Source: a bacterium (GTDB lineage Bacteria > Patescibacteriota > Patescibacteriia > Patescibacteriales > Patescibacteriaceae). Taken from it: DNA of 56,909 nucleotides. Positions 2,112 to 49,740 of this stretch are shown in pieces. Position 1 is the first letter of the stretch. Every line of letters begins with the position of its first letter. Where the stretch lies: the NCBI GenBank assembly GCA_035411265.1, contig DAONSQ010000001.1, forward strand, positions 1-56,909, in the 5' to 3' direction. The notes beneath the pieces are model-generated. The model did not search any database and was not told the DNA's origin. It saw only the letters and a list, made by a program, of their open reading frames with translations. Both the position numbers and the translations under genes were made by a program.

Positions 2112-3722
2112 TTATCGACCTAGTTTTAAATTAATCTTATCAGTCCCAGGAACTTTATTTAAAAAACTTGGATGCCAATCAGTTTTATATTTAATCAAAT
2201 TAGTTTGATTGTTTAAATAATTGTCTAATTGTTTACGGCTCATACCAACCAAGTCTTTCTCATTAATTAACTGTTCTGGACGATTAAAAGCCAAATTACT
2301 GCTATAACTAATTTCTAGTTGGGCCTGATGCTGTTCTGGTGCCCAACTAATTAAGCGATAGCTAAGCGATTGCTTGTTAATAACTGCCGCTGGATTATTT
2401 TGATCAATCAAGCTATTCTCAATTGTTTCCTGATTAACAATCGCGGCTCCAATAGTTGCTTTGATTGCAACTGTAAAATCAGCTTTATTCTCGCCAGCTT
2501 TAGCATTGACACTAACTGGCCAATTATTTTCATCAGTCCAATAAATAACAGTTTCCGAACCAATTTCTGGGGCAATTTTATCTTTAGCTTGTTGCATTGC
2601 CATGCTTTTGGCCTGAGCAATAGCCTGATCAATGTCGTAAACTGTCACCACTGGCTTGCTAGCAACTTGATAATTTATTGGTTGTTCAGCAATAGCGTAA
2701 ATCTTTTCTTGCAATCCAGCCCAAAGACCAGGGATCGTGAATTTAGTTTGAACGCCAATAGCATTTTCGGCTTTGACACTGTCAGCATAGACATTAGCCG
2801 TTACCCTTCCACCAGCCGGAACATTAACATAATCTTTAAGACGATATAAAACACCGCTACTAGTGATTAATCTAGTTGTTGCTCTAAGCGGCTGATCTTT
2901 ACCAGTTTCGTTAATCAAAACTACTTGACCGGCTAAAGTTGCCTCTCCAGTTGTTTGTTCTTGACCAGTAGCTAAAAAAGTCTGCTTATATTCAACAGTT
3001 TCTTGAATAAATTTACTCGGCAGAGCTTCAGCACCAACCGGAGCACTGTCAGTTAAATTAATCGTCTTATTAATTGTCTGGACATCGCTAGCTGGAAATA
3101 AAGTAATATCAACTCTAACCAAAGAATAATAAGACATCGCCAAAACCACGATAGCAATTAAGCCTAAAAAGAAAAAAGCTAAACGACGATAAAGACGGCT
3201 AGAATTTTGTTCTGGTTCCAGCTCAACTTCTTCCAACCATTCAGCTTCATCAATCATTTCTGGTTCTTCTTCAAAAACATGTTGTTCAATTGGATAATCT
3301 TCAAGATTGCCACTAGGCATTGTTTCTTCAACTGGTGTCTCGCGAGCTTCTTCCCAAACTGTAAATTCTTGCTCAGTTACTAAAGGCTGATTAGTGACTA
3401 CTACCACCTGTGGCTGTGCTGGCGCCTTTTTCTTAACCGGCGCTAAAGCTTTTTTAGTAATTGATTTAGTCTTATTTATCGACTTAGCTTTAATTGCTGG
3501 TTTAGTCTTGGCAACTGGCTTAGTCTTGACTTCAATCTTCTTGGCCGGCTTAACTACTGTTTTAGCCATTGTTTTTTTAACTGGTTTTACCACTGATTTA
3601 GTGGTTGTTTTTTTAGTAGTCATTTTAGCAGGACGAACCTTAGGTGGACGGCCAGCCAAACGACGAGCTGGTTGCTTGGCCGACTGCTGGCGCGACACAA
3701 CCGCTGATTTTTTTTGAGGCAT
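2112..3722 (-). CDS. Hypothetical single-pass membrane protein with a basic-repeat plus acidic cytoplasmic head
   Basis: 536-aa ORF with ATG start. The N-terminal ~110 aa are K/P/T/A-rich repeats (KKTTTKSVVKPVKKTMAKTVVKPAKK...). An E/D-rich segment follows, then one TM helix (LAFFFLGLIAIVVLAMSYY) and a ~340-aa external domain of no family I recognise. Confidence 0.7.
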   Translation of the reverse strand: MPQKKSAVVSRQQSAKQPARRLAGRPPKVRPAKMTTKKTTTKSVVKPVKKTMAKTVVKPAKKIEVKTKPVAKTKPAIKAKSINKTKSITKKALAPVKKKAPAQPQVVVVTNQPLVTEQEFTVWEEARETPVEETMPSGNLEDYPIEQHVFEEEPEMIDEAEWLEEVELEPEQNSSRLYRRLAFFFLGLIAIVVLAMSYYSLVRVDITLFPASDVQTINKTINLTDSAPVGAEALPSKFIQETVEYKQTFLATGQEQTTGEATLAGQVVLINETGKDQPLRATTRLITSSGVLYRLKDYVNVPAGGRVTANVYADSVKAENAIGVQTKFTIPGLWAGLQEKIYAIAEQPINYQVASKPVVTVYDIDQAIAQAKSMAMQQAKDKIAPEIGSETVIYWTDENNWPVSVNAKAGENKADFTVAIKATIGAAIVNQETIENSLIDQNNPAAVINKQSLSYRLISWAPEQHQAQLEISYSSNLAFNRPEQLINEKDLVGMSRKQLDNYLNNQTNLIKYKTDWHPSFLNKVPGTDKINLKLGR

Positions 3723-11060: not shown

Positions 11061-11448
11061 TGATCGACGGCCAGCTATAAGCCGGATTCTGTATCCCTAA
11101 AGGGACGGCAGCCATTTATCTTGGCCACTAATTGCTCAGTGGCTCCAGCGAGCTACTTTCTCTTCCGGCAAGCCAGAAGTTTGCTCTTGCTCCAGATAGG
11201 GTTTACCACAACCAATCATCACTGATTGGCGACAGCTGTAGCTACGGCAAGCCGCAACACCAACTGACTTTTCACCTTTGACGGTATAACCGCTAGTATT
11301 GTCTCTGTGGCACTTTCCCTACGCCGGCTTTGCAGTCGACGCGGCGGGCGTTACCCGTTATCACGACAGAGCGCCGAAGCACTCAGGGAGTCCGGACTTT
11401 CCTCTGTTTAGTAAACTAAACAGCGGCTGCCCACTGGCTGTCTGATCT
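11061..11448 (-). ncRNA. rnpB: RNase P RNA, bacterial type A
   Basis: The minus strand carries the universal motifs in the correct order: CAGAGGAAAGUCCGGACUC (P4 5' strand, ~11385..11403), GGGUAACGCCC, GGGAAAGUGCCACAGAGA, GGUAAACCCUAUCUGGAGCAAG, AGAUAAAUGGCUGCCG and ACAGAAUCCGGCUUAU (P4 3' strand, ~11078..11093). There is also a P3 hairpin CUGUUUAGU-UU-ACUAAACAG and P1 pairing GAUCAGAC / GUCGAUC at the two ends. End coordinates are +/- a few nt. Confidence 0.93.
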
Positions 11449-11703: not shown

Positions 11704-11716
11704 ATAAAATGTTTAG

Positions 11717-11790
11717 TGGACGCAACAGGATTCGAACCTGTGACCTTACGGATGTGAACCGTACGCTCTAACCAACTGAGCTATGCATCC
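11717..11790 (-). tRNA. tRNA-Val (anticodon CAC)
   Basis: The reverse complement folds as a cloverleaf: GGATGCA / TGCGTCC acceptor, GCTC-AGTTGGTTA-GAGC D arm, TACGG-TTCACAT-CCGTA anticodon arm, ACAGG-TTCGAAT-CCTGT T arm. No encoded CCA. Confidence 0.92.
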
Positions 11791-14085: not shown

Positions 14086-15870
14086 TTAACGCTTTAATAA
14101 TTTAACAAAAGTTTCACTAGGAATGTCAACACTACCGCGACCCATAGCCATCATTTTATTCTTGCCTTGGCGTTGTTTTTCCAATAATTTACGCTTACGG
14201 GTGACATCACCACCATATAATTTGGCGGTAACATCTTTGCGGAAAGCCGAAATCCTTTCACCGGCCACTACTTGCCCGCCAACGGCTGCTTGCAATTTAA
14301 TCACGAACATCTGACGAGGTAAAGTGTCTTTTAAGGTTGTCACCACGTCCTTGCCGCGACGGAAAGCTTCATCACGATAAACAATCATGGCTAGCGATTC
14401 GACTAAATCTTCGGCTACTAAAATATCTAACCGCACTACATCAGCGGTCCGATAATCGAGCATTTCATAATTGATCGAACCATAACCAGAGGTAAAACTT
14501 TTCATCTTGTCATAAAAATCAGTCAAAATCATACTGAGCGGCATTTCATAATGAAGGACCACCCGAGTTTCATCTAAATACTCGGTATTGCGATAAATAC
14601 CACGCTTTTCCTGTGATAAATTCATGACTGCCCCCAAATATTCTTTAGGGGTGACAATATCTAAAGTTACCCACGGCTCTTCAATGTGCTCGATTTCAGC
14701 AGCACTCGGCAATTGCTGTGGACTGCGGATAATTTCTGCTTCATTGGTATTTTTGCGAAAAACTTTATAAGCCACGCTTGGCACGGTTACAATCAAATCT
14801 AAATTAAACTCTCGTCTTAGTCGTTCCTGAAATATTTCCAAATGAAGTAGACCTAAGAAGCCACAACGAAAACCAAAACCCAAGGCTTGTGATTGCTCTG
14901 GCTCATAAACCAAAGCAGCATCGTTTAACTTTAAACGACCCATAGCTTCGCGTAGATCCTCAAATTCATTACCTTCCTTAGGGAAAATACCAGCAAAAAC
15001 CATTGGCTTAACCTCAGAATAGCCTTTAAGCGAGGTAACTTGATCGGCTGTTTTAACTAAGGTAACCGTATCACCAACTCGACATTCACTAACTTCACGA
15101 AAACTGGTAATGATATAGCCAATTTCGCCAGTCTTTAGCTGACTGCTGGAATGATAATTGGGGTCAAAAAAACCAACATCCAAGGCTTCGCTCTCCGCCT
15201 TAGTGGCCATCAGTTTAATCTTGTCACCTTTATTAATCTGGCCATCAACCACTCTGACATAAGCGACTACCCCGCGATATTCATCATAATTGGAATCAAA
15301 AATCAACGCCCGAAGTGGTCTGTCTTCCTGACCACTCGGCCCGGGAATGGCTTCAATTACCCTTTCCAAGATTGCCTCAACGCCGACACCAGTCTTACCA
15401 GAAGCACTGATTATTTCATCTTCAGAACAGCCAAGTAGCTTGATGATTTCGGCTTTGGTTTTTTCCACATCAGCGGCTGGCAAATCAATCTTATTAATGA
15501 CTGGAATGATTGCCAAATCTTGTTCTAAGGCCAAATAAAGATTAGCCAGTGTTTGAGCTTGGATGCCCTGAGTAGCATCGACTAGCAAAATAGCGCCTTC
15601 TACTGCCGCTAAACTACGAGACACTTCATAGCTAAAATCAACATGACCCGGAGTGTCAATCAAATTGAGCTCATAGCCCTTATATTTCATGTTAACCGGG
15701 GTCAATTTGATGGTAATACCGCGCTCTCTTTCTAAATCAAGGCGATCCAACACCTGATTGGTCATTTTGCGCGGATCAATCGTGCCAGTAAATTCTAAAA
15801 GACGGTCGGCCAAAGTCGACTTACCGTGATCAATATGAGCGATAATACAAAAATTGCGGATTTTTTCCAT
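14086..15870 (-). CDS. lepA: Translation elongation factor 4 (LepA)
   Basis: 594 aa. IRNFCIIAHIDHGKSTLADRLL G1 motif, DTPGHVDF, NKIDL, and the LepA-specific C-terminal domain. Confidence 0.96.
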   Translation of the reverse strand: MEKIRNFCIIAHIDHGKSTLADRLLEFTGTIDPRKMTNQVLDRLDLERERGITIKLTPVNMKYKGYELNLIDTPGHVDFSYEVSRSLAAVEGAILLVDATQGIQAQTLANLYLALEQDLAIIPVINKIDLPAADVEKTKAEIIKLLGCSEDEIISASGKTGVGVEAILERVIEAIPGPSGQEDRPLRALIFDSNYDEYRGVVAYVRVVDGQINKGDKIKLMATKAESEALDVGFFDPNYHSSSQLKTGEIGYIITSFREVSECRVGDTVTLVKTADQVTSLKGYSEVKPMVFAGIFPKEGNEFEDLREAMGRLKLNDAALVYEPEQSQALGFGFRCGFLGLLHLEIFQERLRREFNLDLIVTVPSVAYKVFRKNTNEAEIIRSPQQLPSAAEIEHIEEPWVTLDIVTPKEYLGAVMNLSQEKRGIYRNTEYLDETRVVLHYEMPLSMILTDFYDKMKSFTSGYGSINYEMLDYRTADVVRLDILVAEDLVESLAMIVYRDEAFRRGKDVVTTLKDTLPRQMFVIKLQAAVGGQVVAGERISAFRKDVTAKLYGGDVTRKRKLLEKQRQGKNKMMAMGRGSVDIPSETFVKLLKR

Positions 15871-15940
15871 ACCCGTAGATTATATCCCCATTATGCTGGA
15901 CGAATCGTTCCAAGTCAATGGCTTTAAAGGATTTTAAAAT

Positions 15941-15965
15941 AAAAAAGAGCCCCAACCAAAGGCTC
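15941..15965 (-). terminator. Intrinsic terminator ending a minus-strand transcript just upstream of the lepA promoter region
   Basis: Minus strand GAGCC-UUUGGUUGG-GGCUC (15965..15947) followed by UUUUUU (15946..15941). Confidence 0.6.
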
Positions 15966-16355
15966 GCAAATTTAATATATTCTTAGGCGACTTTCTAGGT
16001 CAGTAGTTGATAGGTCATTACGGAAACCCTATCGGAAACCCTAGAAAAAATGCCTTAGCACTTTTGTGCTTCTTTTTGACGCGATATAATTGGTTGGGGC
16101 AAAGATTAAACGAATCTATTGATACTCTCATTCATGAGAGTCCTCCTTGTTTTGGGATTGGTTAATCGGTTAATCTTTTCCAGCTAGTGGCGCTGGCGTT
16201 TGTTTAAAAGTACATGATAGTGACTGTGTCTACGAATTCGACGCTATGTTGGCTTATTTCTTCTTTGGTGTTGCATTAAAAACACTCCTTATTGATATTT
16301 ACTCTACCAGAGGTAGGCATTTACCGTTTTACTCCTCTTTTTTAAAGCTGTCAAG
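15941..16355 (-). other. Candidate leader/sRNA locus: promoter, three SD-preceded micro-ORFs, nested helices and a terminator/anti-terminator pair
   Basis: See the finding for this region. Elements: TTGACA-17-TAAAAC; micro-ORFs 16320..16276, 16276..16244 and 16135..16106; 11-bp long-range complement 16090..16100 / 15949..15959 overlapping the terminator stem. Confidence 0.4.
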
Positions 16356-16360
16356 AGTTT

Positions 16361-16387
16361 TAAAAAAGACCATCGTTAGGATGATCT
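16361..16387 (-). terminator. Intrinsic terminator of the 153-aa orphan gene
   Basis: Minus strand AGAUCAUC-CUAAC-GAUGGUCU (16387..16367, one G-U pair) followed by UUUUUU. Confidence 0.6.
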
Positions 16388-16396
16388 TTAAACTAC

Positions 16397-16858
16397 TTAA
16401 CCAAACCTTTTATACAGCGCCCAAGGAATGGCGCACAAAAATGGTTCGATTAAATAACTCCAAACAGGATGACGCGCTCGCCGCTGCTGATCATGTCGGC
16501 TATAATCAGCACCAACAAAACGCGGATAAATTATTAGCCACGGCGCTAATCGATGCATGATGCGATAGCCGCGACGAGCCACTGGAAAAGCAATAATTAA
16601 ATAAAGATCAGCCTTTTTTAAAGACCTTACCTTTTTTAATCCTGCTTTTAGGGCTGTTAACATGGTTTGACATTCGTCGCCTGGAATAATATATAGATTT
16701 TGAGTATCTATCTTATCCATTAAATGAACGCCAATATTCTTGTCAGTAATAATGTACGGGTCGCTATAAATCTGAACATTGCGCTTAATTTTCTCGATAA
16801 TGTTCTTATTAGCTTTATAGCTATCCCCAAAAGATAAAGCGAGCAAAACTGCCCTCAT
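16397..16858 (-). CDS. Hypothetical protein (orphan, 153 aa)
   Basis: ATG start preceded by AGGAGG (16870..16865) at 6 nt. Has its own terminator. No family recognised. Confidence 0.7.
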   Translation of the reverse strand: MRAVLLALSFGDSYKANKNIIEKIKRNVQIYSDPYIITDKNIGVHLMDKIDTQNLYIIPGDECQTMLTALKAGLKKVRSLKKADLYLIIAFPVARRGYRIMHRLAPWLIIYPRFVGADYSRHDQQRRARHPVWSYLIEPFLCAIPWALYKRFG

Positions 16859-16922
16859 TTCAAACCTCCTTTTTTTACAAAGAACAGTTTACTTTTTATA
16901 ATAAAAATTGCTATTCGTCAAG

Positions 16923-31903: not shown

Positions 31904-31974
31904 GGGCTTATGGTCCAGTGGTATGACGCTGCATTCGCATTGCAGAGACGCGAGTTCGATTCTCGCTAAGTCCA
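31904..31974 (+). tRNA. tRNA-Ala (anticodon CGC)
   Basis: Cloverleaf: GGGCTTA/TAAGTCC acceptor with the G3:U70 alanine identity pair, CTGCA-TTCGCAT-TGCAG anticodon arm, GCGAG-TTCGATT-CTCGC T arm. No encoded CCA. Confidence 0.88.
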
Positions 31975-31978
31975 CTTT

Positions 31979-32054
31979 CGGGGTGTAGCGCAGTTGGTAG
32001 CGCGCAGCGTTCGGGACGCTGAGGTCGCCTGTTCGAATCAGGTCACCCCGACCA
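31979..32054 (+). tRNA. tRNA-Pro (anticodon CGG), CCA encoded
   Basis: CGGGGTG/CACCCCG acceptor (C1:G72 is typical of bacterial tRNA-Pro), CAGCG-TTCGGGA-CGCTG anticodon arm with G37, GCCTG-TTCGAAT-CAGGT T arm, then ACCA. Confidence 0.92.
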
Positions 32055-33078: not shown

Positions 33079-33459
33079 TCAAATTCTAAATTGCGAGTGC
33101 TCGCTATTTTTAATAACGAGACCAGAAAAATTTTCGAAATTTAATTGTTTCATTTGCTGCTTGTTAAAAATAATTGACTTATCAGGGTGACCGATTTTAG
33201 CCTTTATTTTTGAACAAAAGCAATTTTCATCATTACCCTGACAGCCACAGCCCAGATTGGTAACAAACCAAACATCGCCAAAACCATTATCACGCAGATG
33301 TTTAATCAGTGACATGGCGATTTGATCTGGTTCAAAACCCAATAACATGATTGGAGTTGCTCGGCCAGACAATTCGTGGGATAAGTTAAACAAACGAGAA
33401 AAAATGTTATAAACATCTTCTTCTCCTTTTAGGGCTACTTTTAATTCTCTAGTGATCAT
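33079..33459 (-). CDS. Hypothetical protein with a CGCQ...CFC cysteine cluster
   Basis: 126-aa ORF. ATG preceded by AGGAGG (33473..33468) at 8 nt, ends in TGA. No family recognised. Confidence 0.6.
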   Translation of the reverse strand: MITRELKVALKGEEDVYNIFSRLFNLSHELSGRATPIMLLGFEPDQIAMSLIKHLRDNGFGDVWFVTNLGCGCQGNDENCFCSKIKAKIGHPDKSIIFNKQQMKQLNFENFSGLVIKNSEHSQFRI

Positions 33460-33483
33460 AATAACTACCTCCTTTTATTATGT

Positions 33484-33504
33484 TGTAATGTACGAATCAT
33501 TACA
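33484..33504. promoter_or_regulatory. Operator-like palindrome TGTAATG-N7-CATTACA at the start of the minus-strand two-gene operon
   Basis: 7-bp perfect inverted repeat overlapping a candidate minus-strand promoter: TTGACA 33532..33527, 17 nt spacer, TAGGGT 33509..33504. Confidence 0.35.
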
Positions 33505-33544
33505 CCCTAGCTATTTTACCCAATCTTGTCAATGCTGCCAACCT

Positions 33545-37772: not shown

Positions 37773-37856
37773 GCCGAGGTGGTGAAACTGGTAGACACGC
37801 AAGCTTGAGGTGCTTGTGAAGGCAACTTCTTGCAGGTTCAAGTCCTGTCCTCGGCA
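37773..37856 (+). tRNA. tRNA-Leu (anticodon GAG)
   Basis: GCCGAGG/CCTCGGC acceptor, CAAGC-TTGAGGT-GCTTG anticodon arm, long variable arm, GCAGG-TTCAAGT-CCTGT T arm. No encoded CCA. Confidence 0.9.
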
Positions 37857-37863
37857 CAATTTA

Positions 37864-37937
37864 GGGCGCATAGCTCAGCTGGTTAGAGCGCTTCGTTTAC
37901 ACCGAAGAGGTCCAGGGTTCGATTCCTTGTGCGCCCA
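37864..37937 (+). tRNA. tRNA-Val (anticodon UAC)
   Basis: GGGCGCA/TGCGCCC acceptor, GCTC-AGCTGGTTA-GAGC D arm, CTTCG-TTTACAC-CGAAG anticodon arm, CAGGG-TTCGATT-CCTTG T arm. No encoded CCA. Confidence 0.92.
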
Positions 37938-37959
37938 CTGATTAACTGCTTTTTTATTT

Positions 37960-49346: not shown

Positions 49347-49446
49347 AGAAAAAGGAATTAACTAACTAAAATAACAGATAACGCTATTTCTAATTTATCA
49401 CAAAAAGAGCTATAAGTCTATCTTGAACCCAAATAAAATGAGCTTA

Positions 49447-49475
49447 TTGACAGCTCTTTTAATAAGTGGTAAATA
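49447..49475 (+). promoter_or_regulatory. Candidate promoter of the small duplicated gene
   Basis: TTGACA (49447..49452), 17 nt spacer, TAAATA (49470..49475) with TG at the extended -10 position. Confidence 0.45.
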
Positions 49476-49506
49476 TTAGATGTCTAAACTAGACAAAAAA
49501 AATTTG

Positions 49507-49626
49507 GGAGGAAAAAATGAGTGTCGCCGATCAAATCAGCTCAGCCATCAATTTCAAAACAAAGGAGGAAAAAATGAGTGTCGCCGATCAAATCAGCTCA
49601 GCCATCAATTTCAAAACAAAGGAGGA
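49507..49626 (+). repeat. Perfect 57-bp tandem duplication (2.1 copies) covering the SD, the ATG and 19 codons
   Basis: 49507..49563 is identical to 49564..49620. A third GGAGGA (49621..49626) begins before the sequence diverges. Confidence 0.95.
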
Positions 49627-49702
49627 TGGACAAAAACTTTTAAAAATCCTAAACAACGAAAAGGCTAAGCAAATCTGCTCAGCCAAACTTAAACTTTTCT
49701 AA
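49517..49702 (+). CDS. Small hypothetical protein (61 aa, or 42 aa from the second start at 49574)
   Basis: MSVADQISSAINFKTKEEK + MSVADQISSAINFKTKED + GQKLLKILNNEKAKQICSAKLKLF. Each ATG has GGAGGA 4 nt upstream. A terminator follows. Confidence 0.6.
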   Translation: MSVADQISSAINFKTKEEKMSVADQISSAINFKTKEDGQKLLKILNNEKAKQICSAKLKLF

Positions 49703-49712
49703 TTCAACTAGG

Positions 49713-49740
49713 GACCTGCTGCGGCGGGTCTTTTTCTTTT
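49713..49740 (+). terminator. Intrinsic terminator of the small gene
   Basis: GACCTGC-TGCG-GCGGGTC (one G-U pair) followed by TTTTTCTTTT. Confidence 0.6.

Follow-up and report, generated by a model that had tools for sequence, protein, structure and literature searches.

A lineage-restricted, structured RNA element upstream of lepA in Patescibacteria, with a candidate terminator stem split by a multi-helix domain

What occupies the 526 nt between lepA and a neighboring 153-amino-acid (aa) open reading frame (ORF) in a member of the Patescibacteriaceae, a gap (positions 15871-16396) for which the ORF list of the 56,909-nt stretch analyzed here (GenBank assembly GCA_035411265.1, contig DAONSQ010000001.1, positions 1 to 56,909; hereafter the window) holds no long ORF? 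A first-pass annotation of the letters alone had described an organized minus-strand locus, with a promoter, three micro-ORFs each behind a Shine-Dalgarno (SD) sequence, nested helices, a direct repeat, and an intrinsic terminator at 15965-15941, and had proposed an attenuator, a riboswitch expression platform, or a structured small RNA (sRNA). Every one of these features is present on the minus strand where it had been placed. The downstream gene is a true lepA (elongation factor 4, EF4), with 884 bits to TIGR01393 against a cut-off of 534 and a LepA_C domain, and the exact intergenic sequence of the window is found in three public contigs. Contigs identical to the window occur in the JGI samples 3300010365 and 3300009666. 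Our results indicate that the locus is a real, unannotated RNA element, and probably not a switch controlling lepA. The structured-RNA reading is strongly supported; as to what the element does, we tentatively favor a self-contained small transcript whose intrinsic terminator has a conserved structured domain embedded in it, plus a ribosome-tolerant back-up hairpin, over a leader of lepA.

The 3' part of the element carries the fold. Its 171 nt reach -54.9 kcal/mol (z=-5.2), a value matched by none of 200 shuffles, and the plus-strand fold is less exceptional than that of the minus strand. The parts of this domain, in 5' to 3' order along the transcript, are as follows.

16090-16100, minus strand: 5' arm of helix P1, GCCCCAACCAA; 8 of 11 pairs show a compensatory change in relatives, and 97% of alignment cells pair
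16080-16084, minus strand: 5' strand of helix P1b, UCGCG, from the fold; 5 of 5 pairs with a compensatory change
16057-16070, minus strand: hairpin P2, AGCAC-AAAA-GUGCU, from the fold; 5 of 5 pairs with a compensatory change
15986-16054, minus strand: P3 region, with nested helices CUAGG (16044-16040)/CCUAG (15999-15995) and AUAGG (16032-16028)/CCUAU (16014-16010)
15964-15968, minus strand: 3' strand of P1b, UGCGA, overlapping the 5' arm of the local hairpin
15949-15959, minus strand: 3' arm of P1, UUGGUUGGGGC, pairing with 16100-16090
15941-15965, minus strand: local terminator hairpin GAGCCUU-UGGUU-GGGGCUC (15965-15947) and U tract (15946-15941), from the terminator scan

P1 comprises 11 bp, seven of them GC pairs, ends 2 nt ahead of the U tract, and amounts to -21.6 kcal/mol by itself; with the U tract it is the strongest long-range helix of its kind in the 57-kb window. 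P1b should, by prediction, already have formed when transcription reaches the 3' arm. The GUUUC ... AUGA flanks of both nested P3 helices make up the direct repeat, two copies of AGGGTTTCCG.

Whether this fold is maintained by selection can be judged from relatives, for which we gathered about 175 lepA loci by lepA-anchored scans of GTDB genomes and JGI metagenomes and by exact-protein look-ups. A long intergenic region with this architecture is confined to loci whose LepA shares about 80% identity or more with that of the window, and its carriers fall into four clades: A (the window, L172/L173, L174/L175, L001), B (L003, L084, L168, L169, L170, L004/L081, L005/L083, with L165/L167 related), C (L082, L166), and D (L007/L085, L086, L087, L088, L089/L145). 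In a blastn search of the intergenic region against 80 lepA loci, L001 alone aligned and the other clades could not be aligned to the window, so that homology to clades B-D is set by architecture and by a covariance model. The order of parts is common to all four clades: the CTTGACAG promoter (TTGACAA in clade C), a 5' hairpin, AAGGAGG with a first ORF, a GC-rich middle hairpin (Pm), and TAACC; then AGGAGG with a micro-ORF ending in TAA, a C-rich arm, a hairpin, and a multi-helix region; and finally a G-rich arm, the U tract, and the lepA promoter CCATTGACTT-N17-CATAAT.

All-clade MAFFT alignments were out of register in P1, and an Infernal alignment was used instead. RNAalifold applied to seven clade-B sequences returned P1, P1b, P2, and P3a-c, and a covariance model (R1) built from those seven sequences alone finds the window element at full length (15936-16104, minus strand, E=6e-5), as well as L001 (E=4e-5), clade D (E 2e-7 to 4e-4), and clade C (E 2e-3 to 6e-3). 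Across about 870 kb of lepA loci, R1 gave no other credible match, the remainder (E 0.01-1.5) being reverse-strand copies or weak partial hits. In a 17-sequence R1 alignment, 95.1% of cells pair, compared with 36-41% after sliding the partners by 1-3 columns, and changes on both sides are seen in 28 of the 35 pairs, values that none of 500 shuffles reach and that are inflated because the counts come from a model-fitted alignment. The covariation that the first-pass annotation had named as a check on its proposal is thus strong, and its view of the minus strand as an organized, structured RNA holds.

The same signal can be read directly, since the P1 arms are complementary in every clade while their letters differ: AACCAA/TTGGTT in the window, ATCAAG/CTTGAT in L001, AGTCA/TGACT in most of clade B, AATCAG/CTGATT in L004, CTCCAACA/TGTTGGAG in clade C, and, with G-U pairs, TACTAG/CTGGTG in clade D. 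The G-U pairs fix the RNA strand as that of lepA, and C>U changes in the P1 5' arm of L087 preserve pairing. The inner P3 helix has changed from A-U to G-C in L001 and L174, and the P3 architecture is kept between clades where its sequence is not; more generally, unpaired positions are not conserved across clades, and inner-domain sequence defies alignment among A, B, C, and D, the helices alone being kept. Within clades, conservation exceeds that of lepA synonymous positions: the intergenic region of the window is 78% identical to that of L001, compared with 61% for lepA third codon positions, and clade-B domains are 92-95% identical, compared with 63-75%. The 5' half of the unit is mosaic, with segments re-associating between strains (L169 and L170 share 98% identity in lepA and 58% in the first ORF). 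The element is restricted to one genus-level clade, with about 20 distinct sequences, which limits its general importance.

How does P1 relate to termination? The first-pass annotation had set the 11-bp helix against the terminator as mutually exclusive structures, which would make the former an anti-terminator. In the window, P1/P1b and the local hairpin do exclude each other, P1 and P1b together sequestering both halves of the local hairpin, and blocking the P1 5' arm brings the local hairpin into the minimum-energy fold (-39.0 vs -54.9 kcal/mol); such a switch is not universal, the local hairpin being weak in clade D as described below. Taken without its U tract, the window hairpin has -9.3 kcal/mol (z=-2.6), and in most of clades A-C the values are -9 to -12 kcal/mol (z -1.8 to -3.3), with -5.7 in L004. 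A matching hairpin reaches precisely to the U tract in every one of the 12 lineages tested, and its 5' arm changes jointly with the 1-3 nt that follow P1 (GAGCC/GGCUC, GGACC/GGUCC, GGAGC/GCUCC).

The anti-terminator role finds no support in a comparison with L164, whose LepA is 87% identical to that of the window and in which the entire unit is missing. There, the orthologous arms, CCCCCCAGTCAG-GAT-CTGATTGGGGG followed by UCUUUUU, are the sole terminator before the same lepA promoter, and R1 recognizes this hairpin. With these arms serving as a plain terminator in L164 and with P1 right against the U tract, the helix is probably a terminator stem and not an anti-terminator; and because both folds set a helix against the U tract, both should terminate, giving two terminators rather than an on/off switch. 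P1 thus has the predicted makings of an intrinsic terminator, a GC-rich stem directly before a U tract at the end of the unit, and the 100-140-nt domain appears to occupy what is elsewhere, in L164, a terminator loop. A scan for other structured-loop terminators in the window and 1.15 Mb of related loci gave 43 hits, of which about 20 lay off the locus, compared with 24 in reversed controls, that is, background. The plus strand at P2 resembles a terminator in clades A and B; an antisense transcript ending there was considered and set aside, as this likeness is not conserved in L004 or clade D, and the promoter scan found no plus-strand promoter in the element.

If P1 ends a transcript, the question becomes which transcript, and for this the remaining features of the locus are needed.

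16362-16386, minus strand: terminator of the upstream 153-aa gene, GATCATC-CTAAC-GATGGTC then U6, read from sequence
16326-16354, minus strand: unit promoter, -35 TTGACA (16354-16349), 17-nt spacer, -10 TAAAAC (16331-16326), from sequence and conservation
16276-16320, minus strand: first micro-ORF, MPTSGRVNINKECF, probably 5' untranslated region (UTR), containing a hairpin CTACC-TCT-GGTAG (16316-16304)
16244-16290, minus strand: SD1 (AAGGAG, 16290-16285) and ORF1, MQHQRRNKPT (16276-16244, TAG stop), with positional equivalents in relatives
16154-16196, minus strand: middle hairpin Pm, CCAGC (16196-16192)/GCTGG (16184-16180), plus the conserved single-stranded motif TTAACCGATTAACC (16175-16154)
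16106-16148, minus strand: SD2 AAGGAGGA (16148-16141), a start-presenting hairpin (16141-16124), and ORF2, MNESINRFV (16135-16106, TAA stop)
15890-15918, minus strand: lepA promoter TTGACT-N17-CATAAT, outside the element, from the consensus scan (10 of 12 matches)

The -35 box CTTGACAG and a TAAnnn hexamer are kept in clades A, B, and D, and the unit promoter was missed by the consensus promoter scan because its -10 hexamer ends in C. A hairpin and U-run equivalent to the 16386-16362 terminator precede the unit promoter in clade D and in L174, and this terminator appears to mark the upstream boundary of the unit. At the other end, the lepA promoter CCATTGACTT...AGCATAAT is conserved in every relative, between the unit U tract and lepA. 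As far as can be read from the sequence, this would be the layout of an independent sRNA gene, with its own promoter and terminator bracketed by the terminator of one neighbor and the promoter of the other. The upstream terminator, own promoter, own terminator, and lepA promoter together lead us to conclude that the unit is probably not a lepA leader, and the suggestion that it attenuates lepA is weakened by the conserved promoter that intervenes at 15918-15890. The unit has the same orientation as lepA and adjoins it in every carrier.

The three micro-ORFs proposed by the first-pass annotation fared differently, the second and third (here ORF1 and ORF2) being positionally conserved and the first not standing up. 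The putative SD of the first (AGAGGAG, 16339-16333) sits within the promoter spacer and therefore lies outside any transcript from that promoter, leaving leaderless translation as the only possibility, and its peptide is not conserved in relatives, including the closest divergent one. The hairpin in this segment is compensated to TCCAC/GTGGA in L174.

ORF1 is basic in clades A and D, mostly 10-13 aa long and ending P-T or xP before TAG (in L007/L085 it is MKKI), and in clades B and C it is a 39-67-aa orphan protein ending SGFT-stop, an ending that varies synonymously (GGC/GGT, ACT/ACC, TAG/TAA). The ORF1 family has seven members among 5.8e9 proteins, all within this clade and without domains, and the window ORF1 is a 10-codon stump of this fast-evolving orphan ORF of the sister clades. 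Between the two ORFs, Pm covaries across clades (CCAGC/GCTGG, CCCGGC/GCTGGG, CCCAAC/GTTGGG, CCCGGCC/GGCCGGG, ACGGGCC/GGCCCGT), and a TAACC motif lies 3' of it in clades A, B, C, and D.

SD2-ORF2 is the best conserved block within each clade. The ORF2 peptides are M(N/T)ESIN(R/K)FV and MESTNKFV in clade A, MANRFI and MVKNRFI in clade B, M(K)QKNKII in clade D, and MKVKNGPN in clade C; the C-terminus [NK]-[RK]-[FI]-[VI]-stop is retained through synonymous changes (Arg AGA vs CGG, Phe TTC vs TTT), and the stop lies 4-10 nt ahead of P1 in all four clades (5 nt in the window). Most of the 41 long ORFs of the window are without an SD motif, and AAGGAG is depleted in this genome (11 found vs 27.9+-4.7 expected), which makes two strong SDs within 150 nt unusual; the strong SDs that the window does have belong to a few small genes, each with a TTGACA promoter of its own. 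The strong SD, the synonymously kept C-terminus, and frame-preserving indels argue that ORF2 is real, and we infer that it is translated. L172/L173 are the same as the window over about 520 nt save for a patch of about 50 nt at SD2-ORF2 (16160-16110), with six substitutions, two 3-nt deletions, an ATG>GTG change, and three amino-acid changes. The patch retains the reading frame, the start-presenting hairpin, and K-F-V-stop, and it appears to point to localized recombination or to diversification of the micro-ORF.

Taken together, these observations suggest the following order of events. A transcript of about 375 nt would run from the promoter at 16354-16326 to the terminator at 15965-15941. 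Its 5' part would be a small mRNA, with SD1 and the 10 codons of ORF1 followed by SD2 and the nine codons of ORF2, and its 3' part an approximately 150-nt multi-helix domain (P1b, P2, P3) closed by P1, the stem of the intrinsic terminator. P2, P3, and P1b would fold while the domain is being transcribed, and the emerging G-rich 3' arm would then zip onto the C-rich 5' arm thus brought next to it, so that transcription is terminated by the 11-bp helix with UCUUUUUU behind it and the RNA keeps a 3' end that is closed, compact, and nuclease-resistant. With ORF2 ending 5 nt before P1, a terminating ribosome would cover the 5' arm; the local hairpin (15965-15947) could then pair with the same 3' arm and terminate instead. 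Termination would in this way be independent of translation, and the lepA promoter, about 25 nt downstream, would stay insulated. The folding order, the occlusion by the ribosome, and the role in insulation or stability are thus our proposal, set upon boundaries, helices, and a conserved ORF2 that are there in the alignments and upon arms that make a plain terminator in L164.

Several observations weigh against this explanation. The local hairpin in clade D has -5 to -7.7 kcal/mol with z ~0, the level expected by chance. ORF2 is missing or broken in L004/L081, L005/L083, L087, and L166, in all of which the domain persists; as L004/L081, L005/L083, and L087 have kept the domain after losing ORF2 or the promoter, proofing against ribosomes is not the sole reason for its persistence. 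P2 and P3, to which the proposal assigns no positive role, covary and are conserved within clades beyond synonymous sites, which a mere spacer would not need. A stem closing a 130-nt insert might terminate poorly, which would revive the attenuator reading. Finally, promoter use, the RNA 3' end, and ORF2 translation are predictions, and the covariation counts carry the inflation mentioned above.

It is worth asking, then, what else could account for the unit. A translation-sensing attenuator, in which a ribosome on ORF2 decides between a P1/P1b anti-terminator and the local terminator hairpin, such that poor or slow translation gives more read-through into lepA on top of a basal promoter, would make sense of the strong SD and conserved C-terminus of ORF2, the stop 4-10 nt from P1, the sequestration of both local-hairpin halves by P1 and P1b, and the constant, co-oriented company of lepA, which, most genes having no SD, could be translated from read-through RNA. 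We nonetheless consider it unlikely, since a conserved lepA promoter lies between the terminator and the start codon, P1 abuts the U tract and L164 has no terminator other than its counterpart (so that either fold should terminate), clade D has a marginal local hairpin, L164 is without the unit and L004, L005, and L087 have lost ORF2 or the promoter yet kept the domain, and the 130-nt insert has no role in a simple attenuator. The persistence of the domain in L005 and L087 after loss of the 5' half, its conservation above the neutral rate, the covariation of P2 and P3, the conserved single-stranded TAACC, and a single-copy locus that has its own promoter and terminator and is not a repeat would instead suit a trans-acting structured sRNA or dual-function RNA, whose 3' domain, possibly released, binds a protein or targets, the rest being housing. 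That possibility strikes us as slim: an RNA that binds a protein or targets would not usually vary between clades in its loops and junctions as this one does, L164 manages without the element, and no partner is identifiable, the neighboring 153-aa orphan being absent from some carriers. A metabolite riboswitch, with the P1-closed domain as its aptamer, is highly improbable. Its general shape, a P1-closed multi-helix junction followed by a terminator, is matched, but no unpaired nucleotides are conserved between clades, which also weakens the expression platform proposed earlier; a threshold as permissive as E<=10 brings no Rfam hit, P1 lies against the U tract, and a promoter separates the domain from lepA, which is not a metabolic gene.

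Two further readings start from the ORFs. The locus may be the decaying remnant of the orphan gene ORF1, which is 39-67 aa long in clades B and C compared with 10 aa here, belongs to a tiny family, and sits in a mosaic, hypervariable locus from which L164 lacks the unit, leaving a functionless 3' UTR and terminator. We give this little credence, as the 3' half is conserved well above synonymous sites with compensatory changes in every helix, and ORF2 and SD2 are maintained across clades A-D; of the decayed-gene scenario that the first-pass annotation had itself raised, the stump of a longer ORF remains, beside an RNA domain that is conserved independently. The other reading takes up the earlier observation, which is correct for the window, that ORF1 and ORF2 share one 57-codon frame interrupted by two TAG codons alone, the second (16186-16184) within Pm, and makes of it a gene for a very basic protein of 49-57 codons expressed through one or two leaky in-frame UAGs, with the RNA helices as secondary mRNA features. 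The ORF1 stop and ORF2 start are in one frame in eight of the 10 sequences first tested (L082, of clade C, is out); between the ORF1 start and the ORF2 stop, clades A and D have TAG as the sole interruption of this frame, the other frames having 3-6 stops, mostly TAA or TGA; both TAG positions are conserved within clade A; L007/L085 have TAG at codon 5 and CAG at codon 12, and L086 and L089 the reverse; and the clade-A variants differ by six indels, each of 3 or 6 nt. Against this stand the statistics and the rest of the clades: openness of the frame is weak by shuffling (P 0.1-0.17 per lineage), a codon phase test detects no third-position excess in the inter-ORF frame, synonymous excess there is not significant by permutation (P 0.08, 0.84, 0.39), three of five clade-B sequences have an in-frame TAA, and L003 and clade C are out of frame. 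TAG is also an ordinary stop codon in this genome, ARAGORN shows no suppressor tRNA in the window, and neither ORF1 nor the hypothetical read-through proteins match Pfam, NCBIfam, or PHROG above threshold. We regard such a gene as improbable. In a combined version, the UAG codons would be decoded, with Gln the probable amino acid in view of the CAG/UAG swaps, and the ribosome finishing at the UAA beside P1 would gate the terminator fold; this is a long shot, but if true, a CPR (candidate phyla radiation) bacterium would have here a programmed device that couples stop-codon read-through to RNA folding. Inspection by eye also turned up no matching take-off and landing codons for ribosome hopping of the T4 gene-60 type (UAG, hairpin, SD-like landing aid), and an alternative 2:3 pairing of the ORF1 stop region with Pm is not conserved.

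Known families offer no match to the element, as the first-pass annotation had found for tmRNA (transfer-messenger RNA), SRP RNA, and riboswitches from inspection alone. Rfam 15 at gathering threshold returns only RNase P and tRNAs in the window; at E<=10, region 15700-16600 gives noise (14-21 bits, with cut-offs at 35-111) and an AsrC match within lepA coding sequence; and six relatives searched at E<=0.01 have nothing in the element. The AsrC match (15792-15883, plus strand, 21 bits against a cut-off of 111) recurs in relatives on the conserved 5' coding region of lepA, because the E. coli antisense model contains lepA sequence, and denotes no RNA gene here. ARAGORN found no tmRNA in the window, and the 3' end of the element, GGGGCUCUUUUUU, is without a T-arm or CCA. 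A type I toxin-antitoxin pair was considered and rejected, the peptides being basic or polar and no plus-strand promoter being found in the element. No second copy of a repeat or mobile element (miniature inverted-repeat transposable element, repetitive extragenic palindrome, or insertion sequence end) was seen in the 57-kb window or in 1.15 Mb of related loci, and two 17-mer matches in viral contigs do not match R1 and are due to chance. A search of the literature on lepA leaders and on noncoding RNA motifs of the CPR returned nothing relevant.

The surroundings of the element merit brief description. The 153-aa orphan upstream (16397-16870, minus strand) has its own terminator and a strong SD, AAAGGAGG, one of few in the window, matches no Pfam, NCBIfam, or PHROG family, and lies beside the element in clades A, B, and part of D, being absent in L087-L089. 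One sister lineage has a second tandem unit between the first unit and lepA (L165, 2080-2480; L167, 120-480). This second unit has a promoter and an ORF of 33-54 aa, rich in Met and ending KTF-stop; two hairpins lie inside its 14-bp long-range helix, ATCCTCTCTCCCTGT/ACAGGGAGGAGGAT, after which comes U7. More distant Falkowbacteria (L010, L011, L020, L023, L030, L035) have a TTGAC...TAnAAT promoter before lepA and, in the short lepA 5' UTR just before the ATG, a GC hairpin and U-run (about 60 nt upstream, locus ~2940-3000), which may be a leader terminator and thus a different, more widespread lepA control element. Just ahead of the lepA start in L030, the strand opposite to the gene (2880-2997, minus strand) carries a perfect long-range inverted repeat of 18 bp, ATTTTTGTCATTGCGAGC/GCTCGCAATGACAAAAGT, with a T-run after it. 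Elsewhere in the window, a small SD-led gene with its own TTGACAG promoter and a plain terminator (49440-49740, plus strand) contains a perfect 57-nt tandem duplication (49507-49563, 49564-49620) that includes the SD, the ATG, and the first 16 codons, and an SD-led gene of about 110 aa with a Cys-rich C-terminal half and its own TTGACA promoter lies in a 536-nt gap (33100-33540, minus strand). The RNase P RNA (class A, 187 bits) and five tRNA genes are found at 11062-11442 (minus strand), 11716-11790 (minus strand), 31904-32054 (plus strand), and 37773-37938 (plus strand), and the order lepA-recJ-rnhA-tRNA-Val-RNase P RNA is conserved in relatives.

To our knowledge, almost nothing is known of noncoding RNA and gene regulation in the CPR/Patescibacteria, and a covariation-supported structured RNA without an Rfam counterpart in such a bacterium, whose hosts are abundant in anaerobic-digester and groundwater samples, invites comparison with better studied systems. 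Leader-peptide attenuators, of the trpL type or of the ribosome-stalling types of ermK, the Tn916 tet(M) leader, and Listeria hflXr/lmo0919, likewise have a tiny SD-led ORF with a conserved C-terminus beside exclusive folds that end at a U tract, and the downstream gene here is a translational GTPase; they differ in that lepA has its own promoter after the terminator, the would-be anti-terminator abuts the U tract, a large structured insert separates the arms, and the element or ORF2 is lost in close relatives. With dual-function and 3'-UTR-derived sRNAs such as SgrS/SgrT, RNAIII/hld, and SR1/SR1P, the element shares an independent promoter and terminator, a short (predicted) translated ORF, and a conserved structured part that uses the mRNA terminator, but it has no identifiable seed or target, its loops are not conserved between clades, and it is confined to a single genus-level clade. 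ON-type riboswitches, such as the pbuE adenine riboswitch, also have a P1-closed multi-helix domain whose 3' strand competes with a terminator hairpin, whereas the element is without a conserved ligand-pocket sequence or Rfam match, has P1 directly before the U tract, and has no regulated gene in its transcript. Type I toxin mRNAs of the hok/sok kind resemble it in that small ORF(s) sit in an extensively folded mRNA of about 400 nt, pairing is long-range, and the locus is hypervariable; here, in contrast, hydrophobic peptides and any evident antisense promoter or RNA are lacking, and long-range pairing is internal to the 3' domain instead of joining the 5' end to the 3' end.

The closest comparison is with intrinsic terminators, including branched and tandem ones. 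Like them, the element has a GC-rich helix directly 5' of a U tract, has arms that make a plain hairpin in L164, and stands at the end of a unit, directly upstream of the next promoter. It differs in that a conserved, covarying domain of 100-140 nt (P1b, P2, P3) interrupts the stem, the same 3' arm also serves a second, local hairpin, and a micro-ORF ends 4-10 nt before the stem. This is an unusual architecture, in which a multi-helix domain divides a terminator stem, a second hairpin would serve as back-up, and a micro-ORF comes directly before; if the logic proposed here holds, it shows a way for a terminator to escape interference from ribosomes that halt directly ahead of its stem, and a way for structured RNA domains to arise inside terminator loops.

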